DNA of 64,000 nucleotides, from positions 24,570 through 88,569 of the forward strand of contig CAZOOV010000008.1 of assembly GCA_964581515.1 (NCBI GenBank), written 5' to 3'. The translations under genes and the position numbers were made by a program. Below are positions 22,826 through 57,705 of this stretch, piece after piece. Under the pieces are notes generated by a model that ran no database searches, was not told the origin of the DNA, and worked only from the letters and a program-made list of their open reading frames with translations. Positions within the stretch are counted from its first letter, which is position 1. Each line of letters opens with the position of its first letter. Source of the DNA: an uncultured Methanosarcinales archaeon (lineage in GTDB: Archaea > Nanobdellota > Nanobdellia > Woesearchaeales > JACJVV01).

Positions 22826-24100
22826 TTGGTAGATTTGAAGCTGAAAAAGAAAAAAGAGAAGCAAAAAGAGCCTAAACCGATTAAAGGTATTTCTAAACAA
22901 AACTCTGATTTAATACTTCAATATTGTAGTGATATGGCTCAAGGAAAGAATGTTGCACCGACAAGTACTAAAGGTCCTAGAGCTAAAGATAGAGTTGGTT
23001 CTTTGAAAAGCAAAATGAAAAGAATGACTGAATTCATTGAAGAATTGTTTGGTGTTACTGATTTAAGAAATCTTACAGATGACTATGTTCTTGAATTGAT
23101 TAATGGTATGCGTACAGGTAAATATAGACAAGAAGATGGTAATAAATATGAGTCTGTAGATAGTTATGCAAAAACACTTGCTGCATTTTGGCATTGGTAT
23201 ATGCGTATTGAAAGGAAAAAAGATAATCATGTTCAAGATATTATGCTTGATGTTAAGAAAACAGGAGATAAAAAACCACCATGGGTTTATATGAATCAGG
23301 AAGAATTCAATAAATTTGTTAATAGATGTAAATGGGATTATAAGATATTATGCACCTTCATATATGATTCTGGTATTAGGTCACCCTGGGAATTGAAAAA
23401 TATTAAAGTTTCTGATATTACTTGGGATGAGAAAAATGAACGATATCAGTTATATATAAGAGATGAAGTATCAAAAACATTTGCTAGAAAGATTAAATTA
23501 ATGTTGTGTACTAAACTCTTAAAAGAATGGTTAGCAGAAAGAAATGGTAAGGAATTATTATTTGATTTAAATCCAGAAATAAATAATCAATATTTGAAAA
23601 GAGTTGCAGAAAGAATATGGGGAGAGAAAACAAGCAAAGGAAGAAAGAAATATAAGGATATTATAATGATGGACTTACGGCATAGTTCTGCTTGTTATTG
23701 GTTACCACGATATAAGTCTGAATCTAATTTAAAATATAGATTTGGTTGGAAAAAGTCTGATATGATACATTATTATTCAGAATTTTTAGGAATGACTGAT
23801 AATATTCAAGAAGAAGATTTACTTGTTGATGTGAGTGCAACTGAACTGCAAAATAAGTTTGAGGAAGAAAAGAATCAGAGATTACTTATGGAAGAAAATA
23901 TGCAACAGCAACAGAAAGAGTTTGAAGAATATAAAGAAGCTATGAATCCTATTTTAGAGAAACTAATGCAAGGTTTAGATGGTATGGAAATGGTTGGTAG
24001 ACAACCTAATGGTGCTGGTATATTTAGTAATGCTAAACAGAAGAATAAACCAAAGATAAGTAAGAAAGATGTTGAATTTGCTAAAGGTAGGAATAAATAA
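22826..24100 (+). CDS. int: tyrosine recombinase / integrase
   Basis: Box I-like SGIRSPWEL, HxxR-like MDLRHSSACYWL, and candidate catalytic Tyr in DMIHYYSEFLG. 64 nt from attL. Confidence 0.75.
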   Translation: MVDLKLKKKKEKQKEPKPIKGISKQNSDLILQYCSDMAQGKNVAPTSTKGPRAKDRVGSLKSKMKRMTEFIEELFGVTDLRNLTDDYVLELINGMRTGKYRQEDGNKYESVDSYAKTLAAFWHWYMRIERKKDNHVQDIMLDVKKTGDKKPPWVYMNQEEFNKFVNRCKWDYKILCTFIYDSGIRSPWELKNIKVSDITWDEKNERYQLYIRDEVSKTFARKIKLMLCTKLLKEWLAERNGKELLFDLNPEINNQYLKRVAERIWGEKTSKGRKKYKDIIMMDLRHSSACYWLPRYKSESNLKYRFGWKKSDMIHYYSEFLGMTDNIQEEDLLVDVSATELQNKFEEEKNQRLLMEENMQQQQKEFEEYKEAMNPILEKLMQGLDGMEMVGRQPNGAGIFSNAKQKNKPKISKKDVEFAKGRNK

Positions 24101-24136
24101 AAATGTTTATAGATTATAATATGCAAGAGATGTGTA

Positions 24137-25411
24137 ATGATGGATAAAAAGGGTCAAATAACTTTTTTTATAATTGTTGGAGTAATTTTCATATTATTAG
24201 TACTATTCTTTATTCTTTTCAATAATACTTCTTTTGAAGTGGACAATGTAAATAGCTTAGATACAGGTCAAATTCAATCTTATGTTACTTCTTGCATTGA
24301 AACAACAGCAGAAAAAGGAATTTATTTTATTTCATTGCAAGGTGGATATTATGAAACTTCAGTACCTTATCAACAATATGCTTTTATGGATATACCTATC
24401 TATTGGGATAGTCAGTCAAATATTCCTGATAAATATGTTATTGAACAAGAATTAATTAAGTATATCAAAGCAGAAGTAAACAACTGTCTGAATAATTTTA
24501 CTTTTTTAAAGAAACAAGGATATGATATAACAAATGGTTCTATTGTTGGTAATGCTGTTATAAATGACAATGGGATTGTATTGAACATTGAATATCCATT
24601 ACGTATAATATTTGGAGAGGAACAAGGTACAATTGATAGATTTAAAGCAACTATTGATTTTGATTTTCAGAGAATATATGGTATTGTAAATAAAATTATT
24701 ACAGAACAGATTAAGACGCCTAATGATATGCCATTAGGTTATATTTCTTATTTAGCTTTTGAAGAAAATTTTTTATTTGAGACCGTTAGTATAGAGAAAG
24801 ATGTTATACTTTTTGAATTAATATTTAATGATACTTATAATGGTCAACCTTTTATTTATGCTTTTGTAAGTAAGTATAATTGGTCAAATCTTGATTATGA
24901 TAATAGCTTATATGTTGAACCAATCCCATCATTTATCATTAATGAAAGTAGTACTTTTGAATATACAGTCAGAGCAAATGGAAGTAATGTTCAATATTCA
25001 GATTATACTGGTTTATTTGATATACATGAGAGTACAGGATTAATTATATTTAATACTGATAATGTACCTAATGGTGAACATAATATTTTGATTAAAGTAG
25101 TAGATGAAAATGGCAATGAGGGATATGCTTATATGCATTTGACCGTTGATATGCCTAATCAAAAACCAATTATTAATCCAATAGGTGATCTAACTGTAAA
25201 TGTTGCTGAAGAGTTTGTTTATACAGTTCAAGCATCAGACCCTTCAAATACATTTCTGACTTATCTTGATGATACTGGATTATTTAATATACATCCAATG
25301 ACAGGGAAAATAAAGTTTACACCTACATTAACTGGTAATTATTCAATAAAAATTACTGCTTTGAATGGAGAAGGTCATAGTTTTGAATACATGAGGTTAG
25401 AAGTAATATGA
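24137..25411 (+). CDS. element-encoded membrane-anchored protein with repeated Ig-like segments
   Basis: N-terminal TM (ITFFIIVGVIFILLVLFFILF). C-terminal half has two similar ~90-aa segments (FEYTVRANGSNVQYSDYTGLFDIHESTGLIIF and FVYTVQASDPSNTFLTYLDDTGLFNIHPMTGKIKF). Confidence 0.5.
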   Translation: MMDKKGQITFFIIVGVIFILLVLFFILFNNTSFEVDNVNSLDTGQIQSYVTSCIETTAEKGIYFISLQGGYYETSVPYQQYAFMDIPIYWDSQSNIPDKYVIEQELIKYIKAEVNNCLNNFTFLKKQGYDITNGSIVGNAVINDNGIVLNIEYPLRIIFGEEQGTIDRFKATIDFDFQRIYGIVNKIITEQIKTPNDMPLGYISYLAFEENFLFETVSIEKDVILFELIFNDTYNGQPFIYAFVSKYNWSNLDYDNSLYVEPIPSFIINESSTFEYTVRANGSNVQYSDYTGLFDIHESTGLIIFNTDNVPNGEHNILIKVVDENGNEGYAYMHLTVDMPNQKPIINPIGDLTVNVAEEFVYTVQASDPSNTFLTYLDDTGLFNIHPMTGKIKFTPTLTGNYSIKITALNGEGHSFEYMRLEVI

Positions 25412-27519
25412 GATTATCATATTTGTTGATACTGTTATTAGTTATTCCAGTAGTATTTGCACCATGTCCTCCAGGAGATAGTGGGGATAGTTGTGATTAC
25501 ACAAGTCAAGAAGATATAAATAAATTAGAAGGACAAGACCTTGTTACAGCAATTAATGAGGGTAAAATAACAGATCTTGATTTAGTGGATGATAATAGGC
25601 TTGCAGATGCTATTAGAACTGATCCTTCAATCTCAAATGATTTAGGGAATACTGACTTAGCTAGAGCAGTAAATCAAGATTTATCTCTAATGGATAATCC
25701 ATCTGTTATGGATGAGTTTGATTCAAGAGCACAATCCAATACGCATATACTAAATAATAATCCAAATATTAAGGAAAGGTGGTTTGCTGATAATGGAATA
25801 ACAGATGATGGAGCAGAGATTGAAAATTATGATGGTTCTATCGTTAGTACGAAAGGCAGTCAAGCAACTACATTTAATATTAATAATCATCCAGGAGCAA
25901 GAGTTACAAAAGATGGCAAGTTAGTATTGGTTGATGGAACAGAGATTGCTAATGCTGATGTAACTATTTTAGAAGATGGGAGTTTAAATATTGATGCTGG
26001 TAATACTGATTTGTCTGATTCTGACAGTGCAGATGTTCATGTGAATGCTGGAACTGTTCAGATAGATGATAAATTATATACCACCACAGATAGCTCTACA
26101 ATAAATGTAGCTATTAATAATGGTATAACAAAAATTACAGGTGAAAATATAATTGAATCTCAAGATGGCATAGTAACTGCTGCTTTTTCAGGTGAAATCT
26201 CACTATTTTCAGACGGACATATGGCTTTTGCTGCAAATACCGAATATAGTCAATATAGTAATGGAGAAAAATCTAAAACAGTTACTGTAAATGGTTTAAC
26301 TGAATTTTATACAAATGCAGGATGTGATGAAACAGTTAGTTGCATCCAATATGTTGATGGTAATATGAGAGTTATTGCAAAAGATGATAATAATATTGAT
26401 ATTAAGACGTTTGATGATTCAATAGAAAGATTAGTTGTTGATGGAATTAGTGATGAAAGTACAGTTGTTTTTAATGACAATGGAAATGTTGAGATGACTT
26501 TTTCTAATAATCCAGTTGTTGTTAAAGGTGAATTAACTCAACTGCAAACAGTAGTTGAAACGGATATTACTGTAAAAGAAGGAGTAGCAATCAAACAAAT
26601 ATATTCAAGTGATGGCGTAGAAGTAATCCCCATTAATCCCGATGGAGCTGATAGATTTGCTAATTCTATCTATTGGAAAAGAGTTAGTGAGGATGGAGAG
26701 TTTGTTGATTTGACTAGAGAAGAAGTGATTGAGCAATATGGTATTGACATTGTTTTTGGAGATGACATTGAAGTAAGTGAGGAAGTTCGACAAGCAGTTA
26801 TTAGTGATATTGTGAATTATTATGAAACTTTTCCTTCTCCTGATGATAAAGATGTTATAACTATTAAGATAGAAAGTAATAATGCACGAGGTTCAAGTTA
26901 TGATATACGGGATAATTCTATTAATTTAGTATTAAATGAAGATGGTTCTTTATGGGCAATAAGTGATGAAATAGGTAGTTTTGGAACAATAAGGCATGAA
27001 TTAGCTCATCTACATGAGGATCTTCGTTATCCTTCTTTGAGTAGAGCTAACATGGCGAGTCTTGGAGTGGAAGGAAGGTCTTATTTTGAAAGTGTTATAT
27101 TACAAACTCCATTTTTTCAAGAGTGGATGAATATACAAGGAATTGAATCAACTGCAGATTTAATTGCTAACCAGAATACCTTGACTACACTTAAACCATC
27201 AGATAATGAAGAGTATGGGAATGTAAGAGTTTGGAGTAATGAAGAATGTAATTCTCAAGATCCTTGTCATGGGTATATAAGACCTTATGGAACTGTTTTA
27301 ACTGAAGATTATAGTACTTATGTAGAAAGGATTACTGCTGATCCTACATTCTTTATGAGAAATAATTTAGTTGGTGATAATTCTGACCCACGTTACAGAC
27401 AAAAAATAGACCTTTTGCTTGAGCATAATTATATAACTCAATATGAATATGATGCAGTATTTTATCCTGAAAGGTATTTTACTGATGAAGAATTGCAACA
27501 ATTATTAGCTAACTCTTAA
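25408..27519 (+). CDS. element-encoded secreted protein with HExxH (zincin-like) motif
   Basis: Signal peptide (LLILLLVIPVVFAP); HELAHLHEDL at ~residue 530. Overlaps the upstream gene by 4 nt (ATGA). Confidence 0.5.
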   Translation: MRLSYLLILLLVIPVVFAPCPPGDSGDSCDYTSQEDINKLEGQDLVTAINEGKITDLDLVDDNRLADAIRTDPSISNDLGNTDLARAVNQDLSLMDNPSVMDEFDSRAQSNTHILNNNPNIKERWFADNGITDDGAEIENYDGSIVSTKGSQATTFNINNHPGARVTKDGKLVLVDGTEIANADVTILEDGSLNIDAGNTDLSDSDSADVHVNAGTVQIDDKLYTTTDSSTINVAINNGITKITGENIIESQDGIVTAAFSGEISLFSDGHMAFAANTEYSQYSNGEKSKTVTVNGLTEFYTNAGCDETVSCIQYVDGNMRVIAKDDNNIDIKTFDDSIERLVVDGISDESTVVFNDNGNVEMTFSNNPVVVKGELTQLQTVVETDITVKEGVAIKQIYSSDGVEVIPINPDGADRFANSIYWKRVSEDGEFVDLTREEVIEQYGIDIVFGDDIEVSEEVRQAVISDIVNYYETFPSPDDKDVITIKIESNNARGSSYDIRDNSINLVLNEDGSLWAISDEIGSFGTIRHELAHLHEDLRYPSLSRANMASLGVEGRSYFESVILQTPFFQEWMNIQGIESTADLIANQNTLTTLKPSDNEEYGNVRVWSNEECNSQDPCHGYIRPYGTVLTEDYSTYVERITADPTFFMRNNLVGDNSDPRYRQKIDLLLEHNYITQYEYDAVFYPERYFTDEELQQLLANS

Positions 27520-27941
27520 AACCTTTTAATTTTCTATCAGTTTCCATTTCTGGTATCCGATGGGTTGCGCCTAGAACAACCTCGCGGAACCGCCTTTTAA
27601 ATTTAGTAGTGAGGGAATACTTGGACTGAACTGCTAATTTAAATGGTTAGGTGAGCATAAATAATAGCGCAACTTATCGGAAATGGAAACGTACTGCTGC
27701 CACCACTATTACTTCTATCTGTTTCCAGAGTGGACAACGAAGGGTTTGCGCCTTAAATATTTTTGAAAATGCGTTAGCTATTTTCTTTTTAGAATTTTTT
27801 GATTAGTTACCTGTTTTGTTTTACACCATTTTACTATGTTTTACCCCTTATTGTGTAGTTTTGAGTACTGTTGTTACCGTCGAGGTTTAACACACTTTGT
27901 ACAAGTAGGGTATTTATTTATATAGAGTAAGTTATAACACT
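27520..27941. promoter_or_regulatory. structured non-coding region of the element, candidate replication origin and rep promoter
   Basis: GC-richer than flanks. Inverted repeat cagtttccatttctgg ... cggaaatggaaacg ~130 nt apart, a third copy ctgtttccagagtgg, and direct repeat gggtt(t)gcgcct. Lies directly upstream of rep. Confidence 0.35.
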
Positions 27942-28940
27942 ATGGACATCATGAAATACGATGTCAATCAAAAAAGTTTGTTGGAATTCCCTTATTCACT
28001 TGAAAATAAAGCAACATCTGGAACAAATAATAGAGAAAAAGAAGTAGAAGTAATTATTAATGGACTAAAAGAATATCTTGGTGTTGATGAATCATTGGAT
28101 CATGAGATATGGAAGTATATTAATCGATTAAGGTTGTGCTGTAAACAGTTTTTAACGCTTACATGTGATAATGGTTGTGGTAAGTATAAAGTTGGAATAG
28201 GTTGTAATTTAGCAGTATGTCCTGTGTGTGGTAAGAAACAGTACAAAAGGTTCATATCAAAATATAAGGATAACTTTAGAAGTTGGATGAATCCAAAACA
28301 TTTGACTTTAACATTAAAGAATTTAGATACAATAACAATAGAAGATTATAAAACGCTTTCTTATTGGTGGAAAAGGTTACGGCAAGAACTTAAAAGACAT
28401 GGTGACAAACATAACGTTAAGTATGAGTTTACTTATGGTATATGGGCATTTCATAATCATAACTATGGTAGAGGTTATCATTTACATTTACATATTGTCT
28501 TTGATGGTACAAGAATACCACAGCGTCTAATAAGTAGATTGTGGGAAAGGATTACTAAAGGTTCTAAAATTGTAGAAATACATGAGATAATAACAACTAA
28601 ACAGTTGAGTAAAGCAATTCAGTATGTTGGTAATTATGTAGTTAAGGGTGGTGGTAGTGAAGCTACTGTTCATACACTACTTGAAATGTTCTTTGCTAGT
28701 CGTAATGTGAGAAAATACAATACCTTTGGTAAGTTAAGGGTTGAGATGAAACGAGCTAAATTAACCTCTATCTGTCCTTTCTGTGGTGCTGTAATGGTAT
28801 TTGATGGTATTTTTATGAAATTTGAATTGGAGTTTACAAGAAAGCCATTCTTCAAGCCAATATTCAAACTGCGTCCAAAAACAGAAACACAGTTAAATAT
28901 CAACCACTTTACTTCAACTAATAATGCTGATAAAGCATAA
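27942..28940 (+). CDS. rep: rolling-circle replication initiator (HUH endonuclease Rep)
   Basis: Motif I FLTLT, CxxC...CxxC zinc finger, motif II HLHLHIVF (HUH), motif III YVGNYVVKG (Y-x3-Y...K), all in the canonical order. Confidence 0.7.
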   Translation: MDIMKYDVNQKSLLEFPYSLENKATSGTNNREKEVEVIINGLKEYLGVDESLDHEIWKYINRLRLCCKQFLTLTCDNGCGKYKVGIGCNLAVCPVCGKKQYKRFISKYKDNFRSWMNPKHLTLTLKNLDTITIEDYKTLSYWWKRLRQELKRHGDKHNVKYEFTYGIWAFHNHNYGRGYHLHLHIVFDGTRIPQRLISRLWERITKGSKIVEIHEIITTKQLSKAIQYVGNYVVKGGGSEATVHTLLEMFFASRNVRKYNTFGKLRVEMKRAKLTSICPFCGAVMVFDGIFMKFELEFTRKPFFKPIFKLRPKTETQLNINHFTSTNNADKA

Positions 28941-46293: not shown

Positions 46294-46785
46294 ATGATGG
46301 AGAAAACAAAACTAATCATAACTTTTTGTACGTTATTATCATTATTGCTATTTTTAGTTAGTTGCAACAATGATGATTTTGTAAATCCTGATGATATTGG
46401 TCCGGGTCAGCAGATTTCTAATCCTGCTTCTGTCTATTGTATTGAGAATGATGGAAATCTAAGGATTGATGATTCTCCTGATGGGCAGATTGGTATCTGC
46501 GTATTTGCAGATGGTTCAGAGTGCGATGAATGGGAGTTTTTTAGAGGAGAATGCGGTGAAGTGAAGGATGATGAGCCTAAAGATGATCCTGGTTCTGGTT
46601 CGTGTAATTCAGATAGTGATTGTGTTCCAAATTCGTGTTGTCATGCTGATAGATGTACTGATCTTACTCTTGCTCCTGATTGTTCTGGTTTCAGATGCAC
46701 GCTAAATTGTGAGCCAGGCACTCTTGATTGCGGGCAAGGTTCATGCAGATGTATAGATAATAAATGCAGGGCAATCATTGGTTGA
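46294..46785 (+). CDS. secreted Cys-rich protein (DUF333-like N-domain plus C-terminal Cys-rich domain)
   Basis: Signal peptide; NPASVYCIENDGNLRID...GQIGICVFADGSECDEWEFFRGEC resembles DUF333; 12 further Cys in the last 60 aa. Confidence 0.5.
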   Translation: MMEKTKLIITFCTLLSLLLFLVSCNNDDFVNPDDIGPGQQISNPASVYCIENDGNLRIDDSPDGQIGICVFADGSECDEWEFFRGECGEVKDDEPKDDPGSGSCNSDSDCVPNSCCHADRCTDLTLAPDCSGFRCTLNCEPGTLDCGQGSCRCIDNKCRAIIG

Positions 46786-46838: not shown

Positions 46839-49800
46839 ATGAAATTAAGATATCTTTTGATGATAATACTTGTACTTTGTGCGATTGTTCTAGGTTCTGA
46901 AATAGACATAATGGAGACTGCGACACCTACTCTGGTAAGTGTTGAGATATATAATGAAGCTTCTACTGATGTTGTCTTGGCAGAAGAAGAACTTATTGGA
47001 AAAGAAATTATCATTGAGGAAGAAATTATTGAAGAAGTTGAGCCTGAGCAGAAAGTCATTGTTATCATGAAGGAAAAGAGAAGAGGAACTTCTGTTGCAT
47101 CTGCAAGTATTGGTGTTAGAAGCGTTAGAGAAGAAGTCGCTGATAAGATTGATGAAAGGAAGATTGAGCATGAGTTTAATACATTCAGAGGGTTCTCTGC
47201 AGAGCTTACTGAGAGTGAAATAGAAGAGCTTAAAGAAGATAGTGATGTTGAAGCTGTTGTTGTCGATCAGATGAGATATTTTGAGATGAGTGAGTCTCTT
47301 GGTGTGATAAATGCAACAGATGCATGGGCAATCCAGAAGAATGGAATCAATCTAACCGGTACAGGACAGAGTGTATGTGTTATAGATACTGGTGTTAATT
47401 ATCTTCACGATGATCTTGGTGGATGTCTTGGAGATGGTTGTAAGGTGGTTGGAGGATATAATACTTATCTTGAAAACGCTGATCCTATGGATTATAATGG
47501 ACATGGTACTCATGTTGCAGGAACAGTTGCAGCTAACGGAACAATACAAGGTGTTGCTCCTGGTGCAAATATAATTGCAATAAATGCTTATAATCATAAT
47601 TTAGGTGGTTTTTCTGATAGCGATATAATTCAAGGTATAGAATGGTGTATCAATAATGCATCTACATATAATATCTCAGTCATATCTATGAGTCTTGGAG
47701 GCAGTACAGGGTATTCAACATATTGTGATGCACAGCCTGGTGAAACCTCTTATGTTGCTCCTATTGCTGCTGCAACTGCTGCTGGGATAAGCGTAGTTAT
47801 AGCTAGCGGAAATGATGGATATTCATCAAAGATAGATAGCCCTGCATGTATTGCAAATGCTATCCCTATTGGAATGACTTATGATGCTTCATTTACAGGG
47901 ACATTATGCTGGGGCGGTGGAAGTTGTCCTGGTGGGAATACTTGTGATGATTCTAATGGTGATGTTGATGATGTTGTATGCGCAAGCAATAGAAATTCAA
48001 TAGTGCAGTTATTTGCTCCTGGCGCTCTGATAACTTCTACTTCATATAATCTAGGATATGAAGTCATGGGAGGAACTTCTATGGCAACACCACATGTAGC
48101 TGGTGCATTTGCTGTGATAAATCAATATCTTGTACTCAATGGTAGTTCAATGACTCCTTCAGAGATTGAATCATTGTTCAATAGCACAGGTGAACAAATA
48201 TATGATAGTGTATCTGGACTTTATTTCTCAAGGATTGATCTTTATTCTGCACTTAATAGCATTGTAGATGTTATACCTCCAAACATGAATCTTCTTACAC
48301 CATCAAGTGGAATAGCAACAAATAATAACAGCATTACAATCAATTTTACAGCTACTGATGATATAGATAGTATTCTTGCTTGTGATGTGTATATCAATAG
48401 TGTTCTGAATAATTCATTTAATGTCTCAAATGGCTCTTATGCTAATTATTCTGCTTATTATCCTGAGGGAAGTTATACTTGGTATGTGAATTGTACAGAT
48501 AATAATACTAATGTTAATATAAGTGAGATTAGGACTTTTAGCGTTGATAGGACAGCTCCTTTATTTGTTGATAGGATAAATGATCCAATGATGTATAGAA
48601 ATGACAGCGATTATATCTTAAATGTAACGGTTGTCGGCGATAATACCAGTGCAGTAATAATCTCTTTGTATAATGGTACATGGAATAATTTCTCTATGCA
48701 AAATAGTGGGACTAATTATTATTTTGCAAGCAGTGCAACATTTCAGATAGCAAGTAATACTCTTTATAATTATTATTTTTGGGGAAATGATTCACTCAAT
48801 AATATCAATTATACTGTTGCATCTAATTTTACTGTGATTGGAACTAGTGCTAGTCAAACAATTGCTAATACTCCCAATGTGAATATTGGTGATGATTATG
48901 ATGAAATCATTGTTCCAGAAAATTCAGTCTTAGAAAACGTTACAGTGAATTCTACAGGTGATGTTTATCTAAATCTTAGTAGTATAATATCAAATGATTC
49001 AGTAACAATACCTAATAATTTTACATTGATAAGGGAAGCAGTTGTGAATTATACTGCTTATATCCCTTCTGGTACAGAAGTACAGGGTCCAAGTGGTTGG
49101 AACGGTACAATAAATCTGCCGATTGTCAGAAATTCTTCTGATTATACAGCACCTTCAGGAGATGTTGAGGTTGTAGTTGATATGGGTTCAAGCATAAGAC
49201 TTAACTTTTCACAGGCTGTAAAGATAATCATTGGAAATATGTCTGGAAAAAGTGCTGCATGGACAAACGGGGCAGGAACACTTAGTGCAATATCAACAAC
49301 ATGTACTAGTGTTACAGTGCCAGGGATAAGTTCTGGTGAGTGTTCTATTGATAGTGGAAGTGATCTTTTGATATGGACATATCATTTTACTGAGTTTGCA
49401 GCTTATAGTCCGGCAAGTGGCGGTGATACATCTAGTGGCGGTGGTGGCGGTGGTGGTTCATCTTCATCTGTAACTGTCATGAATGTAACTGATGCTGTTG
49501 GACATGTAGTAGATGGTAAAGCAGGAAGGACTTATTCATTTTATATTGGAAAGGATAAGAAGACAATAAGAGTGCATAAGATTGTTTCAGGCTCTGTTGT
49601 ATTCATCGCTGAATCACCTAAGGCATTCTTTACTCTTGCTCCTGGACAGGATATAAGTGTTGATTTTGATAATGATAAGGTATATGACATTAATGTTGAA
49701 CTTTTATCTTTAATAGACTCAAAATATGCTGATTTTAAGGTGTATATAGGAGGTAGAGAACAAAAGAGAGAACTTGTTGCTTTTACAAATCCACTTGAAA

Positions 49801-50015
49801 CAGAAGAACCTGTTCAGATAGAGGGAGATATTGATGATACTCTCAATGTTTCATCAGGTGAAGTTGTAAAACAGCCAAGAAATATTAATACTGATTTGAT
49901 TATGGGTATTGTAATTACTGTTATAATATTTATTCTTGTTCTTGTAATGATGCTTGTTATTTATCTTGCAAGGAAAAATAGCAATGAAATTGAAATTGAA
50001 GAAAGATTAGATTAA
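46839..50015 (+). CDS. subtilisin-like serine protease (S8), surface-anchored
   Basis: Catalytic triad blocks VCVIDTGV (Asp), HGTHVAGTVAANG (His), GTSMATPHVAG (Ser). N-terminal signal and propeptide; long N-x-S/T-rich C-terminal region; Gly-rich linker; C-terminal TM plus basic tail. Confidence 0.85.
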   Translation: MKLRYLLMIILVLCAIVLGSEIDIMETATPTLVSVEIYNEASTDVVLAEEELIGKEIIIEEEIIEEVEPEQKVIVIMKEKRRGTSVASASIGVRSVREEVADKIDERKIEHEFNTFRGFSAELTESEIEELKEDSDVEAVVVDQMRYFEMSESLGVINATDAWAIQKNGINLTGTGQSVCVIDTGVNYLHDDLGGCLGDGCKVVGGYNTYLENADPMDYNGHGTHVAGTVAANGTIQGVAPGANIIAINAYNHNLGGFSDSDIIQGIEWCINNASTYNISVISMSLGGSTGYSTYCDAQPGETSYVAPIAAATAAGISVVIASGNDGYSSKIDSPACIANAIPIGMTYDASFTGTLCWGGGSCPGGNTCDDSNGDVDDVVCASNRNSIVQLFAPGALITSTSYNLGYEVMGGTSMATPHVAGAFAVINQYLVLNGSSMTPSEIESLFNSTGEQIYDSVSGLYFSRIDLYSALNSIVDVIPPNMNLLTPSSGIATNNNSITINFTATDDIDSILACDVYINSVLNNSFNVSNGSYANYSAYYPEGSYTWYVNCTDNNTNVNISEIRTFSVDRTAPLFVDRINDPMMYRNDSDYILNVTVVGDNTSAVIISLYNGTWNNFSMQNSGTNYYFASSATFQIASNTLYNYYFWGNDSLNNINYTVASNFTVIGTSASQTIANTPNVNIGDDYDEIIVPENSVLENVTVNSTGDVYLNLSSIISNDSVTIPNNFTLIREAVVNYTAYIPSGTEVQGPSGWNGTINLPIVRNSSDYTAPSGDVEVVVDMGSSIRLNFSQAVKIIIGNMSGKSAAWTNGAGTLSAISTTCTSVTVPGISSGECSIDSGSDLLIWTYHFTEFAAYSPASGGDTSSGGGGGGGSSSSVTVMNVTDAVGHVVDGKAGRTYSFYIGKDKKTIRVHKIVSGSVVFIAESPKAFFTLAPGQDISVDFDNDKVYDINVELLSLIDSKYADFKVYIGGREQKRELVAFTNPLETEEPVQIEGDIDDTLNVSSGEVVKQPRNINTDLIMGIVITVIIFILVLVMMLVIYLARKNSNEIEIEERLD

Positions 50016-50189: not shown

Positions 50190-52289
50190 CTAATAAACCG
50201 GAATCTTTGTTGATGGTTCATTAAGTTCTATATTCTTTACCTTATGCAAGTCATCTAATGCATTGATCCTCAATAGCTTACTTGACTTGGTATAGAGCAT
50301 ATCTTCAATGTAGAGGCTTCTTTCTACTGCAGGTTGCCAGTAATATTCTGTTGCAGATGAATGATCTATCAAGCCTCTTAATTTAATCTCGTCTTGTTTT
50401 ATCTTAAAGACGAATGCTCCATTGTAGCTTTCTCCTTTGTCAGAGTAATCATAGCTGTATACAGGGATTACTAATAGCTCCTTATCTTTTGAGAATAAGA
50501 ACGCTTTATGTTCGTACATTGCACTAGATTGCACATAACGTTCATCTGTGACATACTGTGCTACTTCTTCAGGATTAGCTACATCGCTTACATCGAACAA
50601 TGATATCTTTAAGCCAGTTGTTCTTCCTGTCTCTGTTGCATCTTGTCCAATACCTATTATTGTATCTTCATCATATGGATGTAGGTATCTTGAGAATCCT
50701 GGAATCTTTAGTTCTCCAAGTTCTTTTATATTCTTTGGACTGCTTAAATCAATAACAAAGAAAGGATCAATCTGTCTGAATGTTACCATATATAGTCTTC
50801 CTAAGATGAATCTTGTTGAATATATCTGTTCACCACTAGCCATACCTTCAATGCTGTCAAGTTCATCAAGGTCCATGTCAAGCGTATAGATGTTGTTTTG
50901 TGACTCAGTCCTTGTACTGTCAAACCTTGACCATCTTGCACTTACAGTGGTTGCAATTCTTAAGACATCATTGTATTCGTCAAGTGAGAATTGGTTGATG
51001 ATATGGCCTGGGACTTTGCTGTTTGCTTCAGGCTTTACTTCATTATCATCTACTGCAATCCTATTGATTACTGTATATTCCATGTATTTTGTCTCATTAA
51101 GTTTCTTCTTGAGAAGTATTTCTGCTTTATCTTGAAGTTCATCTTGCTCATCACGGTCCATCCTTGAAAGGAATGTTGAATAGACTTGCCATATCTTGTT
51201 TTTCTTCTCATATTGAGACAAGACATCATTATCTGTAAGTTTTATCTTTTCTATAAGATTAATCTCTCTTTCAGATAATTCATCCTCTAGAAGTTCCATG
51301 GTAATCTGTTGCTGAAGTTCATATTCGCTTAAGTATTGCGTATAAGTTATGTAGATGTTTTCTTGTGACATATACATGTTTTGGCTTCCTTCTACAACTA
51401 CAGCAGTTGTACTTACATCTTCAGATGTATCATCAAGATTAATTGTATTAGTTATAACATACATTGGACTTTGATAATGGATGTCATAATAATAAATGCT
51501 ATTTAGAGAGACTGTTTTTATTTCACCTTCTTCTATGAATCTAGGTAAAGGTTGATCTACATAATATTGAGGATAAGTTGTAGTTATGAAGTAAACATAG
51601 TCTCCCTTCATCCTTGCTCTGAAATAACCACCTTCAAATTTGTATTCTTTCTCAAGTTCTGGATCATCTCTATCGCTGATATCATATACATTGAAGAATG
51701 ACATACTTGAATATGGTACAAAATCATATTTATCATAGTAATCATAGTCATAATCATTACCAAATACTGCAAGTGTATCGTCATTTATGAAAAGACTTGA
51801 TGGATTACTATCAAACTTAATTGTTGAAACTATCTCTGCATCTTCTCCTGGATATGCTTTGATTATGTATAATATATTGCTTGAAATTGTGTAAATGTAG
51901 TCTCCATCTGTCTTTATGATGTCTGCTTCATCTACTCCTTCTACTTGGATATTTGTTTCTGAAAAGTCAAGAGATTGTTCTTCGAAAGCAGCTCCTGATA
52001 CTGTTGGTGATATAGCCATATCTGCCATCATCTCTACTCCCATTCCTCTTCCCATTGATTTCATTGAATAAATATCATTATATCCTCCTGATGTGTCTTG
52101 TAGGAGATTTAATAATTCACTCTCATCCTTGAATTGTTTTGTATTGATATCTTTATCATAGTCAAATGAATATTCATCATAGGTGCCTGTACCTGTCGGT
52201 GTAGTGGTTCCTGGTTCAACAGGCTGGCATGCAGCTATGAATAATAAACTAATTATGGTTACACATAAAATCATGATCTTGTTTTTCAT
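50190..52289 (-). CDS. secreted lipoprotein-like protein (LFIAAC lipobox-like), beta-rich
   Basis: 699 aa; signal peptide ending ...SLLFIAACQP; Y/D-rich. Confidence 0.55.
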   Translation of the reverse strand: MKNKIMILCVTIISLLFIAACQPVEPGTTTPTGTGTYDEYSFDYDKDINTKQFKDESELLNLLQDTSGGYNDIYSMKSMGRGMGVEMMADMAISPTVSGAAFEEQSLDFSETNIQVEGVDEADIIKTDGDYIYTISSNILYIIKAYPGEDAEIVSTIKFDSNPSSLFINDDTLAVFGNDYDYDYYDKYDFVPYSSMSFFNVYDISDRDDPELEKEYKFEGGYFRARMKGDYVYFITTTYPQYYVDQPLPRFIEEGEIKTVSLNSIYYYDIHYQSPMYVITNTINLDDTSEDVSTTAVVVEGSQNMYMSQENIYITYTQYLSEYELQQQITMELLEDELSEREINLIEKIKLTDNDVLSQYEKKNKIWQVYSTFLSRMDRDEQDELQDKAEILLKKKLNETKYMEYTVINRIAVDDNEVKPEANSKVPGHIINQFSLDEYNDVLRIATTVSARWSRFDSTRTESQNNIYTLDMDLDELDSIEGMASGEQIYSTRFILGRLYMVTFRQIDPFFVIDLSSPKNIKELGELKIPGFSRYLHPYDEDTIIGIGQDATETGRTTGLKISLFDVSDVANPEEVAQYVTDERYVQSSAMYEHKAFLFSKDKELLVIPVYSYDYSDKGESYNGAFVFKIKQDEIKLRGLIDHSSATEYYWQPAVERSLYIEDMLYTKSSKLLRINALDDLHKVKNIELNEPSTKIPVY

Positions 52290-52320: not shown

Positions 52321-53334
52321 TTATTGGAATATATTTGTTAACCAGTCTAGGAATTTATTCCATGTATTTTGCTCTGGTATTTCTTCTATTTCTTCTATAT
52401 TAGTATTATCTCTATCTGTGTTATCTATTGGTTTTTTATCATTACCAATATCATTTGTATCTTCTGGTTCTCCACATTTGTATATGGGACATCCATCTTT
52501 ATAATATTCTCCACTTTCATAAACTGGTTCACATAATGGCATCATGCATAGTTTTTCTTTTACTTCTTTTATATCTTCTTCTGTTGTTTTCTCTTCTGTT
52601 GTCCTTGCGTCTTTTGTTGCTTCTACATATTTTATCTTGAAAAGGTCTATTAGCATCTCACTAGTTACGTCCTTACTTGATACGGTTCTGTAATTGAGAT
52701 TTAAGTCTGTTAATACTTTTTGCAGTTCATCTGAGAAAAGAATCTGTTTTTGTGTTAAACTTTCACCTTTGATTATTATTGCTTCATTGCTGTAAAAAGC
52801 AAGTGTTATCTTATATTCTAATTCTCGTGCATTGACTTCATTGAATGTGAATGTTGAGTTTGGTCTTTCATAACCATTATCTTCCAATTTGAAAGCAATA
52901 TCTGTGAATGTTGTTATATCTGATATCGCTGCACTTTCATCAATACCCATGCCAAAATAAGGTATGCTTTTCTTATTATGTTTTAATTCAAATATTGCAA
53001 AGTATTCTTGGTTTATCTTTGATATTCCATTTAATCTTAATGTGATGCTCTCAAAAACTTTGTTTGATTCTAATGCATAAGTCTCTCCAGTTGATAGTAG
53101 ACCACTGTCCTCTGCATTTACACTGATTTTTGCTTTTCTATCTTCAAGATCATCAGCCATCGTTATATCTTCAATTGTAATCTCATAAGCATAATTATCG
53201 AGTACATATGTTTTGGTACTTCCTTCTTTAACCTGGTCATTAATAACATCATTATAATTTTCGCCTAATACAACTGTACTTGTAGATATTATCATGATTA
53301 TCATGAAAGTTAATATGTAAATTATTTTTTTCAT
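52321..53334 (-). CDS. secreted protein with one copy of a Cys-rich module shared with 55398..57179
   Basis: Signal peptide. Segment CMMPLCEPVYESGEYYKDGCPIYKCGEPED parallels CKMPACEGAYETGEYYENGCAVYKCPPEP in the 621-aa protein. Confidence 0.5.
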   Translation of the reverse strand: MKKIIYILTFMIIMIISTSTVVLGENYNDVINDQVKEGSTKTYVLDNYAYEITIEDITMADDLEDRKAKISVNAEDSGLLSTGETYALESNKVFESITLRLNGISKINQEYFAIFELKHNKKSIPYFGMGIDESAAISDITTFTDIAFKLEDNGYERPNSTFTFNEVNARELEYKITLAFYSNEAIIIKGESLTQKQILFSDELQKVLTDLNLNYRTVSSKDVTSEMLIDLFKIKYVEATKDARTTEEKTTEEDIKEVKEKLCMMPLCEPVYESGEYYKDGCPIYKCGEPEDTNDIGNDKKPIDNTDRDNTNIEEIEEIPEQNTWNKFLDWLTNIFQ

Positions 53335-54239
53335 TCAGAGTCACCTTTTTTTACTGCTTTTTTGATTAGCTCAATAATTATTATTAGAATTATGACAAAA
53401 ATGCATCCAGCTAAGAACCACAGTGCATAATTTGGTATTGTTTGTGCAATTTCGGGTGTTTTGTCTACTGTTGTTTTGACAGCTTCATTAATCGCTTCGG
53501 GTGCTACATCAGATACTTTGGATATTGTATTGTTTAATGCAGGAGCTACTGTATCTGCTGCAATGTTTTCTGCAGCATTTGTAGCAGCTGTTGAGGCTAC
53601 TTCTTCTGCTCCTGTGGCTGCAGTGGTTGCTACTATCTCTTGTGCACCTGTTGTAGCTGCAGCTGCAGTAGAATCAGCAACTTCTTGAATTACTTGTTTT
53701 CCTCCTTCTCTTGCAATGTCATATTGAGCAGTATCTCCAACTGATTTCATTGCAGATCCTGAAGCTCTTCTGAAGTAATTTTGATATATATGTATAAATG
53801 CAGTGCCTACAAGACTTACTAATGCAATAGGTAGTAATGATCTTAATTTACTCTTGAGTCCCTTAGTACTGACATTTTTTGGTGCTATTATTATATATTG
53901 ATTTGCTAACTTGTAATGATTTACTTCTTTTCCTCTCTTAGAATAATGATATTCTTCTGCAACAACAAGTCCGCTCTTTATTAATTGCTGAAGATTGTAG
54001 TGTACAGTAGAAAGCGGAATATTCAAGTGCTCTGAAAGTTCTGTCTCGGTTGATTCTTTATCAGCATCAGCTAGGTAATCTAATATCTTCCTGCTTGTCT
54101 CATTTGTTATGACTTGAGCGACTTGTTTAGCTTGGTCCTCTTCAAGATTAATTAATAATAGTTTTTTTCTTGCCATAATGAGTATAAATTGGGTGGTTTT
54201 TAAATATATATCTTTGACTTCAAATTGATTTGAAGTCAT
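53331..54239 (-). CDS. membrane-anchored winged-helix (ArsR-like) transcriptional regulator
   Basis: wHTH (SRKILDYLADADKESTETELSEHLNIPLSTVHYNLQQLIKSGLV), central TM, Ala/Thr-rich repeats, C-terminal TM. Start may be internal (MARKKLLL). Confidence 0.5.
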   Translation of the reverse strand: MTSNQFEVKDIYLKTTQFILIMARKKLLLINLEEDQAKQVAQVITNETSRKILDYLADADKESTETELSEHLNIPLSTVHYNLQQLIKSGLVVAEEYHYSKRGKEVNHYKLANQYIIIAPKNVSTKGLKSKLRSLLPIALVSLVGTAFIHIYQNYFRRASGSAMKSVGDTAQYDIAREGGKQVIQEVADSTAAAATTGAQEIVATTAATGAEEVASTAATNAAENIAADTVAPALNNTISKVSDVAPEAINEAVKTTVDKTPEIAQTIPNYALWFLAGCIFVIILIIIIELIKKAVKKGDSE

Positions 54240-54287
54240 ATTGAGCTTAATTGTGTTTAATTTGTCCTATATTTTGTTGTAATGTAA

Positions 54288-55190
54288 TTATAATAATATA
54301 CTGACTAATACTAGAGTCATCAGATTGCCAAAAAGCAATGTGATAATGAATCCTATAAGGAAGCTTGGTATGAATGGGATTCCTACTTTGACTGCAATCT
54401 TGCTTATTTTGTATTTCTTTAAAAGAGCTATTTGAGCTTTGCTTATTCCGAGGTCTTTTGGACCTGTAATATATTTGCCTTTATGTCTGATTTCTTTGTC
54501 TATCCAGTCTCCTTCTGTAACTTTTGATGGAGGTAGCATAACAACCATGCTACTTCTTTCAACACTTTTTGCGAAGATATAAGCATATATTGTACCAATA
54601 CATAATGCAGCTAGTGTAATAAATATAAATGCAAAATCTTTAAAGAAAAAACTACAGATAATTAGTATGATTGCTGCAATGATGCATGATCTTTTCATGA
54701 CTTTTGCATTTGAGGAAGCTTTTTTCCATGATTTGACAAATTTTTTCTTATTTTTAATACCTAAAACTATGCTCCATATTAAGCCAAATAATGAACCTGC
54801 TATGAATGCGTTTATTATGAATGATACAAGTAGGCTGTTGAGTATTCCATAAACGCTGACTGGTATTATCTTAAGTCCAAATAAAATACCTAGCCCCATC
54901 ATCATTTTGCTGTCTCCTCCACCCCATTGGCCAGCATAAAACATTCCTAGGGCGATTGCCATTGCAATAAGAAATCCTATAAAACCATCTAGTATTATCA
55001 TTGGATTGAGCGTGATTGCTGCAAATAGAAGTCTTAATGCAATCGCTGAGATAAAAAGACCATAATTGACCATATCTGCGACTTCTCTTTTTTGGAAATC
55101 TGTTATTGAGCCAATTGTCATGACTACTAATGCCAAGATTACCATTATAAGATTATATGAGCTTTGTGCTATTAGGTCTAATATAAACAT
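54288..55190 (-). CDS. A24-family prepilin/preflagellin peptidase (PibD/FlaK-like)
   Basis: Asp in TM1 context (ITDFQKREVAD) and second catalytic Asp in GGGDSKMM; multi-TM; 300 aa with C-terminal extension. Confidence 0.7.
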   Translation of the reverse strand: MFILDLIAQSSYNLIMVILALVVMTIGSITDFQKREVADMVNYGLFISAIALRLLFAAITLNPMIILDGFIGFLIAMAIALGMFYAGQWGGGDSKMMMGLGILFGLKIIPVSVYGILNSLLVSFIINAFIAGSLFGLIWSIVLGIKNKKKFVKSWKKASSNAKVMKRSCIIAAIILIICSFFFKDFAFIFITLAALCIGTIYAYIFAKSVERSSMVVMLPPSKVTEGDWIDKEIRHKGKYITGPKDLGISKAQIALLKKYKISKIAVKVGIPFIPSFLIGFIITLLFGNLMTLVLVSILL

Positions 55191-55397
55191 AATATTATCC
55201 TGGAACTAGCTTTTTATAAAGTTTTGTGAGAATTTCGAGATTAAAAAGAGTAGAATAGAGTAGAATAAGAGAAATTAAGAGAAATAAAAAGAAATAAAAA
55301 AAGAAATAAAGAGAAATAAAAAGAAATTATGAGAAATAAAGAAAAGAATAGAAAAAGAAAAATAAAAAAAAGAATAAAAACTAGTTCAGTTTGAAAA

Positions 55398-57179
55398 CTA
55401 GAACAGTTTGCTTATCCAGCTAAGGAATGTCTGCCACGCACTTGAACTGACACATTCACTGTCAATACAAAGATTAGTGGAACACTCATAGTTGTTGTTG
55501 CATGAGTCTCCTTCTTGACTTTGCTTATTCCATTCAAAGTCAATGCCACAAAATACAGCCTTATCGTCAAGATTTAATCTTGTTCCTTGTGTTAGGCATC
55601 TGTCTTTGTATTCACAACCTTGTTCACATACAGGTGGTTCTGGGTCATCTATACAAATATAGATTGGACAATCGTACTTGTCGTATTTTCCTGTAAACTC
55701 AAGATCTTCGCAGACAGGTACACTGCAGACATTGTTGCCTTTTACAATTTTGAATTTTGCACTTACTGTATGTATAATTGGTGGTTCAACCATACAATCT
55801 ATTACAGTATTGCTATCACTATCTGCGGTTATATTGCTGTTTTGTTCTTTTCTGGTACTAGTCACTCCGCAATCATATGGCAATGTTGGGTCTATGTCAT
55901 AATAATTGAAGTTGAGTTCATATGTACCTATCGGTACTTGTTTGCCACTAGATATATGATTCGTATATACTTCTGTAATCTCTTTTGTTGTTCCTTCTAT
56001 GATCTCTTCTTTAGAATCATACTCAATAGTATTATACACTACGGTATCATAATCTTTTGTGATTTCTTCTTTTATCTCTTCTTCGACTTCATATACTTCT
56101 ACATTAGATTCTTCTATGTCATAATCATCTGTCTCATATACTTCAATATTATAATCATCTATTTCTTCATCTATATCATATGTTATGTCATATTCTTCTC
56201 TACAATTGTCATCATAGCTGTATTCTATCTGATTCCATGTATCTATGATTTTTGTCTCTCCTGGTTCTATCTCACCGATTCCAAATACAGTTGGTCTTGG
56301 AAGACATAGATCCAACAATAACAATTTTCTTGCATTTATTGTGTTGACATATTCTTTTGTCTGGTATATTTGGTATGCACTCTTTGGTGTTGCAGAGTTC
56401 ATTGAGTAAAATATTGAATGTTTATTGTTGTTCTTGACTTTGATATTTATCTTATTGCCTTGTTCATAGTCATCTTTAAGCAAAACTTCAACTTCAACTG
56501 GCTCTGGTGGACATTTGTAGACTGCACAACCATTCTCGTAATATTCTCCTGTCTCATATGCACCTTCACATGCAGGCATTTTACATACTTGGGTTTCGCA
56601 TGAGTAAATTGGACAATTGTATTCATCATATCCGTGGATGATCATATTTCCTTCACATATAGGTTCTATACATGAATATGTTATTTCTTCACATATATAA
56701 TTGGGACAATTATATTCATCATATCCAGTTATAATGAGCTCTCCATTACAGACTGGTTCTGCACATGCAATCTCTATGCATTCATATTCTGGACAACCAT
56801 TATTATCATAATATCCTGTTGTGTAGCAATTCTCTGATGCAGGAACTGAGCAGGCAATGTCTTCGTCTACATCTTCTATCATAATGCATTCGCCGTCTTT
56901 ACAACCATTGGGACAATCGTAAAAAACAACATCAGCCATGCCATCATTCCTACAGTAGTTCTCCTCTAGCATGCTTGGGAACAATTCATCATCATCAGGC
57001 ATACACCTATCTATATTATTGAAAGGCAATCCATAAACATCTGTTGAGTTTATTGTGCCTGTATTATAATAATCCATACCATCATCATTTTCAATACACT
57101 GTGCAAATACTACATTTATCATCATCAATATAAGTCCGAATGCGAACATTATTTTTTTTATTCTTCTCATTTTTTTCAT
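55398..57179 (-). CDS. secreted Cys-rich repeat protein
   Basis: Signal peptide (MKKMRRIKKIMFAFGLILMMINVVFA; SD-like GAGGGG upstream). At least five repeats of C-x-xP-x-C-[EN]-G-x5-G-Y-D-E-Y-N-C-P-x-Y-x-C. Acidic Y/D/E-rich central region. Confidence 0.55.
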   Translation of the reverse strand: MKKMRRIKKIMFAFGLILMMINVVFAQCIENDDGMDYYNTGTINSTDVYGLPFNNIDRCMPDDDELFPSMLEENYCRNDGMADVVFYDCPNGCKDGECIMIEDVDEDIACSVPASENCYTTGYYDNNGCPEYECIEIACAEPVCNGELIITGYDEYNCPNYICEEITYSCIEPICEGNMIIHGYDEYNCPIYSCETQVCKMPACEGAYETGEYYENGCAVYKCPPEPVEVEVLLKDDYEQGNKINIKVKNNNKHSIFYSMNSATPKSAYQIYQTKEYVNTINARKLLLLDLCLPRPTVFGIGEIEPGETKIIDTWNQIEYSYDDNCREEYDITYDIDEEIDDYNIEVYETDDYDIEESNVEVYEVEEEIKEEITKDYDTVVYNTIEYDSKEEIIEGTTKEITEVYTNHISSGKQVPIGTYELNFNYYDIDPTLPYDCGVTSTRKEQNSNITADSDSNTVIDCMVEPPIIHTVSAKFKIVKGNNVCSVPVCEDLEFTGKYDKYDCPIYICIDDPEPPVCEQGCEYKDRCLTQGTRLNLDDKAVFCGIDFEWNKQSQEGDSCNNNYECSTNLCIDSECVSSSAWQTFLSWISKLF

Positions 57180-57303: not shown

Positions 57304-57705
57304 CTATGCAGCTCTTCTGATGAAGCCTTCTATGTCCTTTATTGCGTCTTCAACTTCTCTTTTGAGGACTTTTCTTGGTTTTTGGCCTTTATCTTCATCT
57401 TCTCTTGCCTGAAATATTTCAGAACCTACCTGGATAATGACTCTGATTGCTCTGTGTCCTTCTTTATCGCGATCATTATCAGGTTTTACAAGAATGGTAA
57501 TCTCTTTGCCTAATTTGTTATTTTCTGATATTTTACAGAAAAATGAGCAATATTGTGAATGTTTGTTGATATAGCCATATTTTACTTTTGTAAAGTCATT
57601 TGTTATATTGAATTTATGGAGAATTCTGTCAATCTCATGATGCAATCTCTTAAGATATCGTCTTTTTTTGAGCTCTTTTGCTACTTCTTTTAATAATGGA
57701 TCCAT
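57304..57705 (-). CDS. hypothetical protein
   Basis: 133-aa ORF. Confidence 0.4.
   Translation of the reverse strand: MDPLLKEVAKELKKRRYLKRLHHEIDRILHKFNITNDFTKVKYGYINKHSQYCSFFCKISENNKLGKEITILVKPDNDRDKEGHRAIRVIIQVGSEIFQAREDEDKGQKPRKVLKREVEDAIKDIEGFIRRAA

Follow-up and report, generated by a model that had tools for sequence, protein, structure and literature searches.

Two genes in a 64,000-nucleotide stretch of DNA from an uncultured archaeon (contig CAZOOV010000008.1, positions 24,570 to 88,569; hereafter the window, to which all coordinates refer unless a locus of another genome is named) encode a 593-amino acid mosaic protein and a 337-amino acid protein, called here W593 and W337, both predicted to be exported and both carrying a small cysteine-rich module. 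The results of this work suggest, with a probability that we put at about 0.62, that W593 and W337 are accessory, Sec-exported and probably surface-retained mosaic proteins built from undescribed cysteine-rich modules of DPANN archaea and bacteria of the candidate phyla radiation (CPR), and that their genes were inserted into an otherwise conserved locus. The host is itself a DPANN archaeon (a Woesearchaeote), since the window, which has a G+C content of about 33%, carries archaeal L7Ae, S28e, L24e, NDK and aEF-2 genes at 57.9-61.7 kb, and its genes have their best genomic relatives in metagenome-assembled genomes (MAGs) of Woesearchaeota and Nanoarchaeia. This DNA also occurs on a metagenomic scaffold of 237 kb. 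W593 consists, in this order, of a signal peptide, an N-terminal cysteine-rich domain, four modules in tandem (residues 110-223), a middle domain, a fifth module (residues 485-509), a C-terminal domain with eight cysteines and a tail, and W337 of a signal peptide, a domain of unknown kind, one module, an acidic linker and an amphipathic tail. Their features are the following, P numbers being handles for related proteins of other genomes:

55398-57179, minus strand: W593 gene; open reading frame (ORF) with gene-caller support, TATA box and Shine-Dalgarno sequence before the ATG at 57179, oligo-T after the stop
57102-57179, minus strand: Sec-type (signal peptidase I) signal peptide of W593, MKKMRRIKKIMFAFGLILMMINVVFA followed by Q; read from sequence
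56862-57101, minus strand: N-terminal cysteine-rich domain (C-x3-D-x-G-x-DYY ... CPNGCKDGxC), residues 27-106; 50% identical to P0002
56778-56852, minus strand: module copy 1, CSVPASENCYTTGYYDNNGCPEYEC, a variant with the second cysteine displaced; domain of 48 bits in the hidden Markov model (HMM) of the module
56691-56765, minus strand: module copy 2, CAEPVCNGELIITGYDEYNCPNYIC; regular expression and module HMM
56598-56672, minus strand: module copy 3, CIEPICEGNMIIHGYDEYNCPIYSC; regular expression and module HMM
56511-56585, minus strand: module copy 4, CKMPACEGAYETGEYYENGCAVYKC; regular expression and module HMM; best BLASTP partner of the W337 copy
55728-56510, minus strand: middle domain, common only to P0003, interrupted by an acidic low-complexity insert rich in D, E, Y and I
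55653-55727, minus strand: module copy 5 (distal), CSVPVCEDLEFTGKYDKYDCPIYIC; regular expression and module HMM
55449-55628, minus strand: eight-cysteine C-terminal domain, including C-x-N-N-[FY]-E-C-x-[ST]-N-x-C-x4-C; alignment of 26 sequences with eight invariant cysteines
55401-55445, minus strand: C-terminal amphipathic W/F-rich helix, ending in AWQTFLSWISKLF at the end of the protein; regular expression, AlphaFold2 helix
52321-53334, minus strand: W337 gene; ORF whose start overlaps the stop of the gene before it as ATGA
52474-52548, minus strand: single module copy of W337, CMMPLCEPVYESGEYYKDGCPIYKC, residues 263-287; regular expression and BLASTP
52327-52362, minus strand: C-terminal amphipathic tail of W337, WNKFLDWLTNIF, without the eight-cysteine domain; regular expression

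A sequence-only reading of this DNA had given the larger protein 621 amino acids and at least five tandem copies of a module of about 28 residues with four invariant cysteines. The stretch 55398-57179 encodes 593 amino acids from its ATG. The longer form would require a start at the GTG of 57263, which has a TATA-like box downstream of it; of three gene callers, two (the ENA and NCBI entries among them) give 593. Five copies are indeed there, four of them in tandem and the fifth distal, and the module does have four cysteines within 26-32 residues, the second of them being displaced in copy 1; W337 does carry the single copy attributed to it. Copies 2 and 3 share 71% identity over 80 nucleotides of DNA and are spaced 93 nucleotides apart, and a six-frame regular expression scan of the window finds the module in the W593 and W337 ORFs only. 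The acidic insert of the middle domain lies at 55950-56250 (residues ~330-420) and has internal DNA repeats at 55981-56083.

That the two predicted exported proteins share a real module, as first suspected, is borne out both by the BLASTP alignment between them (E 1e-9, 52% identity over 33 amino acids, with three more module matches) and by independent profile matches reaching E 1e-31. A 32-position profile of the module, searched against 1.84 billion protein cluster representatives, matched 74 of these at E ≤ 1e-3, and for 26 of them E was 1e-10 or lower; proteins left out of the profile building still match at E 1e-31 to 1e-23, and P0048, the cluster representative for W337, does so at E 1.1e-7. 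A few of the weakest matches are false positives, with P0063 and P0075 lacking cysteines in the matched region. The search, of a kind that the sequence-only reading had proposed for archaeal proteomes, returned mostly DPANN and CPR proteins and no described family: the named hosts are Woesearchaeota, Nanoarchaeota and Aenigmatarchaeota on the archaeal side and Gracilibacteria and Patescibacteria on the bacterial one, to which are added one deltaproteobacterium with a divergent 14-copy version and, with weak matches, a few short peptides of eukaryote-like character from metatranscriptomes. In the first of these (P0009, from a deltaproteobacterial MAG) the 14-copy G-G-[FY]-D-x-x-G-C-P-[LM]-P-P-x-C array is fused to a dockerin-like domain, and the eukaryote-like peptides (P0037, P0064, P0067, P0069 and P0072) show G-K-D-x-N-G-C-P-x-[YF]-x-C repeats.

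Local re-extraction gave 135 module copies of at least 20 bits each, with the consensus a-C-[SA]-x-P-x-C-[ED]-G-x-[YI]-D-T-G-[KE]-x-D-x-N-G-C-[PK]-I-Y-x-C-P. The spacing of the cysteines is x4/x13/x4 in 46 of these copies, x4/x16/x4 in 28 and x2/x13/x4 (the CxxC variant) in 19, and the strongly conserved positions besides the cysteines are P, T-G, D, N-G, P-I-Y and P. In tandem arrays the module is shuffled with Kazal, PKD and PepSY-like domains and with cysteine-rich modules of other kinds, and the proteins that carry it are named either 'hypothetical' or after another domain (DUF5667, Kazal). The N-terminal cysteine-rich domain of W593 was found in 35 copies, up to five per protein, among 78 fetched proteins (local jackhmmer), and has no match in a Pfam scan; in the form C-T-D-S-D-G-G-x-[ND]-Y-Y ... 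CPNGCxDGxC it is a second widespread cysteine-rich domain of DPANN and CPR organisms.

Scanned against Pfam and NCBIfam, neither the window proteins nor ten further module proteins give anything on the module, and W337 as a whole has no match in either; the only sub-threshold matches are to DUF4932 (18 bits, cutoff 28.7) and to a zinc ribbon (E 0.1). Sequence searches of the Protein Data Bank (PDB) with the module came back empty, and literature searches on cysteine-rich surface proteins of DPANN archaea and Woesearchaeota yielded nothing on it. No EGF-like or granulin family appears at E ≤ 1 for W593 and W337, or at E ≤ 0.1 for the ten other module proteins, and the four cysteines of the module also differ from the six of EGF and the twelve of granulin. 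A viral origin was likewise set aside; tblastn of W593 against 50,697 phage records gave no match. The module is a sequence family not described before, largely confined to DPANN archaea and CPR/Patescibacteria, and it is accompanied by an equally undescribed C-terminal domain and tail.

In AlphaFold2 the single module (copy 2, with 118 module copies as alignment) is predicted as a beta-hairpin, with a mean predicted local distance difference test score (pLDDT) of 78.7, and a second model, covering module 5, the C-terminal domain and the tail (26 sequences, mean pLDDT 91.6), again gives module 5 as a hairpin (strands 12-18 and 24-28, local pLDDT ~89-95) and the eight-cysteine domain as an all-beta fold with pLDDT above 90. 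A knottin or inhibitor cystine knot was rejected because the module has four cysteines and not six, and Foldseek matches to knottin toxins stay at E ≥ 0.85. Fold searches of the PDB produced no significant match for the module, where the weak resemblances to pacifastin, knottin toxins and LEAP-2 are all at E ≥ 0.38, nor for the eight-cysteine domain. Cysteine makes up 7.6% of the mature regions of the complete module proteins and its count is even in 28 of 32, which fits structural pairing without separating disulfides from metal sites of four cysteines. The kind of module is a familiar one, that of small cysteine-rich repeats in exported mosaic proteins: the N-domain of IGFBP, the cysteine-rich region of Dickkopf, the TIL-E and C modules of VWF and mucins and fibronectin type I are likewise short, beta-rich, held by cysteines and arranged in tandem in exported multidomain proteins. 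The window module differs from these eukaryotic disulfide-rich modules in its four cysteines at x4/x13/x4, in showing no sequence similarity to them and in its DPANN and CPR hosts.

The two ends of the proteins point to export and, probably, to retention at the surface. Nearly all complete module proteins have Sec-type N-termini as read from their sequence, and those of W593 (MKKMRRIKK, a hydrophobic region and VFA/Q, the slash marking the cleavage site) and W337 (MKK, a hydrophobic region and VLG/E) have sites of the signal peptidase I type, so that both proteins are likely to leave the cytoplasm. At the other end, both finish in W-x-x-F-L-x-W-[IL]-x-x-[IL]-F. Of 68 module proteins, 24 have a W/F tail (W[FL]xx[LI]F) as their ending, which in 22 of them is preceded by the eight-cysteine domain, whilst 12 of the 68 end in a PepSY-like domain with PWWSFL and most of the remainder are contig fragments. 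Carriers of the W/F tail include P0002, P0004, P0007, P0010, P0011, P0014 and P0017; the PepSY-like ending, with KPWWSFLA, is found in P0008, P0013, P0018, P0020, P0022, P0035, P0046 and P0058-P0060, and many of the proteins that have it share F-P-I-T-G-[RK]-[VI]-I-E-I-S-A directly after the signal peptide. The hydrophobic moment of the tail is 0.56 in W593 and 0.60 in W337 (range 0.49-0.64, at moderate hydrophobicity), and AlphaFold2 makes the W593 tail a helix at positions 98-111 of the modelled construct. Since in W337 the tail follows an acidic linker with no eight-cysteine domain, it is an autonomous element, and it is probably a surface or membrane anchor; that it should be a surface-anchoring signal specific to DPANN and CPR organisms is a more tentative idea, which we would not favor at present. 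Archaeosortase-type (PGF-CTERM) signals consist of a signature motif, a transmembrane (TM) helix and a basic cluster at the C-terminus. The tail shares with them the short conserved motif at the far C-terminus of exported proteins, and differs in being an amphipathic helix of 13-15 residues, with neither TM helix nor basic cluster, that ends at F or FG; a sorting signal of that type was therefore rejected.

Between and beside the two module genes lie three others, all five being clustered on one strand. The sequence-only reading had these neighbours right in kind, i.e., an A24 peptidase between the module genes (PF01478, above cutoff), an ArsR-like winged helix-turn-helix (wHTH) protein with two TM segments (HTH_20 and ArsR matches, two hydrophobic segments) and, at 50190-52289, a lipoprotein-like protein (lipobox LFIAAC, PF09826):

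54288-55190, minus strand: GxGD aspartyl peptidase of family A24, prepilin/preflagellin peptidase type; PF01478
53331-54176, minus strand: membrane-tethered wHTH protein; HTH_20, HTH_24 and ArsR matches
50190-52289, minus strand: beta-propeller lipoprotein; PF09826, lipobox

The same reading went further and saw in this arrangement a cassette for a secreted or surface structure, equipped with a processing peptidase and a membrane sensor-regulator of its own, a proposal that did not survive the examination of signals and gene order. The peptidase itself is a genuine member of Peptidase A24 (PF01478 at 41.0 bits against a cutoff of 26.5, E 2.8e-10; GGGD active-site motif at residues 90-93, 54912-54923), although it scores 44.6 against the FlaK equivalog of NCBIfam, below the cutoff of 330. 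PibD, FlaK and EppA are A24 peptidases that act with pilins and archaellins, whose class III signals begin with a short charged leader that has [KR]-[G/A/S] as its last residues and runs directly into a hydrophobic stretch of ~20 residues. No such signal is present in W593, W337 or the beta-propeller protein, where K and not G, A or S precedes the hydrophobic stretch, and the N-termini check that had been proposed for the cassette is accordingly negative. The window resembles those systems in holding an A24 gene together with a class III protein, encoded at 24137-25411, which is where a regular expression scan finds the only true class III signal of the window; the module proteins differ from the substrates of PibD, FlaK and EppA in their Sec/signal peptidase I signals and in a linkage to A24 that is not conserved.

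With the A24 gene as query we found five genomic relatives (loci with L numbers), and in none of these loci was the module found. The closest is a Woesearchaeota MAG, L008, whose A24 protein is 60% identical and whose genes run EF-2, NDK, S28e, L7Ae, an equivalent of a 133-codon ORF, A24, wHTH, PF09826 beta-propeller and S8 subtilase. The 133-codon ORF encodes, in the window, a small basic protein with no family match at 57304-57705 (minus strand), between L7Ae and A24; its syntenic counterpart in L008, at 4337-4795, is 32% identical. In L008 58 nucleotides separate this ORF from A24, where the window has W593, and the wHTH gene overlaps the beta-propeller gene immediately 3' of it, where the window has W337; from this spacing it follows that both module genes are absent exactly at the places they occupy in the window. 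L011 keeps only the A24-wHTH pair, A24 adjoins the L7Ae/NDK/EF-2 cluster in L008 and is kept beside the EF-2/NDK cluster in L010, and in L009 a true pilin gene lies downstream of A24. The homologues of W593 whose contigs could be read, i.e., P0002, P0003, P0006 and P0007, sit in unrelated neighbourhoods; P0003 and P0006 have full module copies, P0002 a divergent one only, and P0007 shares the C-terminal domain and tail with W593 and has no module. Judged by this gene order, the W593 and W337 genes are best read as lineage-specific insertions into a conserved locus of A24, wHTH, beta-propeller and subtilase genes, and A24 would serve as a housekeeping enzyme, its class III substrates being encoded elsewhere.

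Transcription signals were read from the sequence. The W593 gene has an SD-like sequence, GAGGGGAG, in front of its ATG (57179), a TATA-like box, CTATATAAAA, ~65 nucleotides upstream, and oligo-T tracts 3' of its stop and before the separate TATA of A24, and because of these signals it appears to be monocistronic. The A24 gene has its own CTTTATAAAAAG box, the wHTH gene its own TATA ahead of the ATG at 54176, and the beta-propeller gene starts 31 nucleotides past W337 with an AGGAGG Shine-Dalgarno sequence. The likely transcription units would be W593 alone, A24 alone, and wHTH-W337-beta-propeller, so that the only plausible local link would be the cotranscription of W337 with the wHTH gene. 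In the W593-A24 spacer, of 207 nucleotides, there is a T-rich tract (55230-55395, minus strand) with a period of about 10 nucleotides and TTTATTTCTC repeats, which is probably a terminator region, though an unusually regular one.

In the window the wHTH protein has its wHTH at ~53964-54086, TM1 at 53772-53837, TM2 at 53364-53429 and a conserved KLRS/LLPI at 53826-53849, and its start at MARKKLLL is backed by homologues and by the TATA. The family counts at least 172 metagenomic relatives, of which the best 80 loci (L013-L092) were examined. None of these 80 contains A24 (BLAST and A24 HMM; 60 of them have at least 1 kb of upstream sequence), or the module (module HMM). The PF09826 gene, in the window a match at E 3.6e-146, is the usual partner downstream of the family: in 11 of 54 loci it lies directly downstream of wHTH, and in 5 it is downstream at a greater distance. 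A DUF333-like gene is present in 11 loci, and about 38 of 48 ORFs directly downstream of wHTH encode proteins with a lipobox or signal peptide. More generally, the wHTH-TM gene usually precedes a gene for a variable exported lipoprotein, be it a PF09826 beta-propeller, a DUF333-like protein or a small cysteine-rich one. The wHTH gene and the exported lipoprotein gene look like a conserved regulator-plus-cargo pair, and W337 occupies the slot that in other genomes holds the variable lipoprotein.

It is tempting to ask whether the membrane-tethered wHTH protein is itself a substrate of the adjacent peptidase. All 77 wHTH homologues compared keep E-K-L-[KR]-[SGAT]/I-L-P-V at the cytoplasmic edge of TM1 (loci carrying it include L008 at 5968-6624 and L011 at 6037-6681), a motif similar to [KR]-G/[VL]-S-P-V, the site at which archaeal prepilins are cleaved. 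Were A24 to cut there, the wHTH domain would be freed into the cytoplasm, and regulated proteolysis driven by a prepilin peptidase would control the exported-protein gene that always follows, here W337. We nevertheless rate this as a long shot, because Pfam Pilin_N (PF07790) does not match four wHTH TM1 segments at E ≤ 10, and because A24 adjoins wHTH in three close genomes only, the pairing not being found in the best 80 wHTH loci. The pilin fragment of L009 gives E 0.2 with Pilin_N, and TM1 as a pilin-type N-terminus was dropped for want of support from that profile. A possible architectural parallel is offered by ArnR and ArnR1 of Sulfolobus, membrane-bound one-component HTH regulators of type IV pilus-like structures, in which an N-terminal HTH is followed by a HAMP/sensor domain and two C-terminal TM helices (PMC6396743). 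The wHTH protein of the window likewise combines an N-terminal HTH with two TM segments and adjoins a type-IV-pilus-related gene. The comparison is one of architecture. There is no match to a HAMP or sensor domain, the loop between the TM segments is an Ala/Thr-rich low-complexity stretch, and the partner of the family is a downstream lipoprotein (PF09826 or DUF333-like) and not pilus genes.

How far other explanations could account for the two proteins has to be weighed against all this. In a dedicated secretion or surface cassette, A24 would process the module proteins and the lipoprotein, and the wHTH protein would sense and regulate; that the five genes stand together on one strand, that A24 and wHTH are adjacent in L008 and L011 too, and that the W337 start overlaps the wHTH stop would then be as expected. 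Such a cassette is nonetheless very unlikely given exported proteins without a class III signal, a backbone conserved in L008 without the module genes, an A24 gene whose neighbours are L7Ae, NDK and EF-2 in L008 and L010 and a true pilin in L009, no A24 in the 60 wHTH loci with upstream room, no module in any of the 80, and the promoter and terminator signals of W593's own. It could also be argued that the module is but a chance or compositional likeness of cysteine-rich low-complexity sequence, being short and having cysteines that inflate similarity scores. This we consider negligible, as the conserved positions other than cysteine recur in 135 copies from unrelated proteins, E values fall to 1e-31 against the 1.84 billion proteins and the structure prediction for module 5 and the C-terminal domain is confident.

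The nature of the cysteine sites leaves more room. The module might be a zinc knuckle or ribbon-like hairpin in which four cysteines hold a metal; the proteins would, in that case, serve to display metal on the outside of the cell or to sequester it there. A zinc ribbon proper has two CxxC-type knuckles on its beta-hairpin, which together bind one Zn. As in zinc ribbon and knuckle hairpins, the module has four invariant cysteines in two pairs that flank a beta-hairpin, which is just what the prediction gives; the first pair is CxxC in 19 of the 135 copies, often as C-T-A-C-x-G-G, and the even cysteine counts are compatible with metal sites too. The spacing of the first pair, however, varies among 2, 4, 5, 7 and 9, the second is C-x4-C without exception and encloses a bulky I-Y, the proteins are predicted to be exported and carry many other cysteine-rich domains of the disulfide type, e.g., Kazal, and the best zinc-ribbon profile of Pfam is not a significant match, all of which makes a metal site rather unlikely. 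If, on the other hand, W593 and W337 were released as effectors (protease inhibitors or toxin-like binders) instead of being anchored for structure or adhesion, this would agree with the co-occurrence of the module with Kazal domains in P0004 and P0036, with the annotation of one cluster member as a Kazal-type inhibitor, with the weak fold likeness to pacifastin, knottin toxins and LEAP-2, and with a subtilase gene nearby. Release of this kind seems unlikely: those fold matches are not significant, most complete members finish in a conserved tail or a PepSY-like end, which suggests that they stay with the cell, and the subtilase is conserved in L008 where the module genes are missing.

We return then to W593 and W337 as accessory mosaic proteins of the surface. 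In their module, a C-x(2-4)-C loop at the N-terminal side would be joined, presumably by two disulfides, to a beta-hairpin that turns at the conserved D-x-N-G and has C-P-I-Y-x-C in its second strand. Strung together, such modules could be rigid beads, resistant to proteases, by which binding surfaces are spaced or presented on the outside of the cell, whilst the terminal helix would keep the protein at the cell surface or the membrane. The regulator would belong to a separate and widespread pairing of wHTH protein and lipoprotein, into which W337 happened to land. Several points speak against this interpretation. The host probably lives under anoxic conditions, and extracytoplasmic disulfides would there need dedicated machinery; the predicted cysteine sites could bind metal in place of forming disulfides; the tail could pack on the C-terminal domain or mediate oligomerisation; and the argument for insertion is drawn from one close relative, L008.

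Other parts of the window deserve a brief mention. Large envelope proteins are encoded at 2492-6730, by a gene for 1412 amino acids with beta-helix, cadherin-like and Big_9 domains, and at 46839-50015, where the S8 subtilase (1058 amino acids) carries an I9 propeptide and, at its C-terminus, a TM anchor; its gene adjoins a DUF333 gene at 46294-46785. The region 22826-28940 is a putative integrated mobile element, with a tyrosine integrase, a rolling-circle Rep-like gene and a gene for a 703-amino acid secreted protein with a HELAH motif. This element also encodes the class III protein mentioned above, of 424 amino acids (24137-25411), which combines the signal MMDKKG/QITFFIIVG with an Ig-like domain.

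In conclusion, the proximity of the module genes to an A24 peptidase and a regulator seems to be an accident of insertion, for which reason annotation of the locus as a cassette for secretion or for a pilus-like structure should be avoided. The module, the eight-cysteine domain and the tail are three families that could join the domain databases. Life in attachment to other cells has been proposed for DPANN archaea and CPR bacteria, whose surface proteome is mostly unannotated. By analogy with this lifestyle, the proteins described here may serve in adhesion, as spacers or in cell-cell contact, and validated profiles of the three families would allow them to be counted in each genome and likely envelope proteins to be flagged for studies of host attachment.

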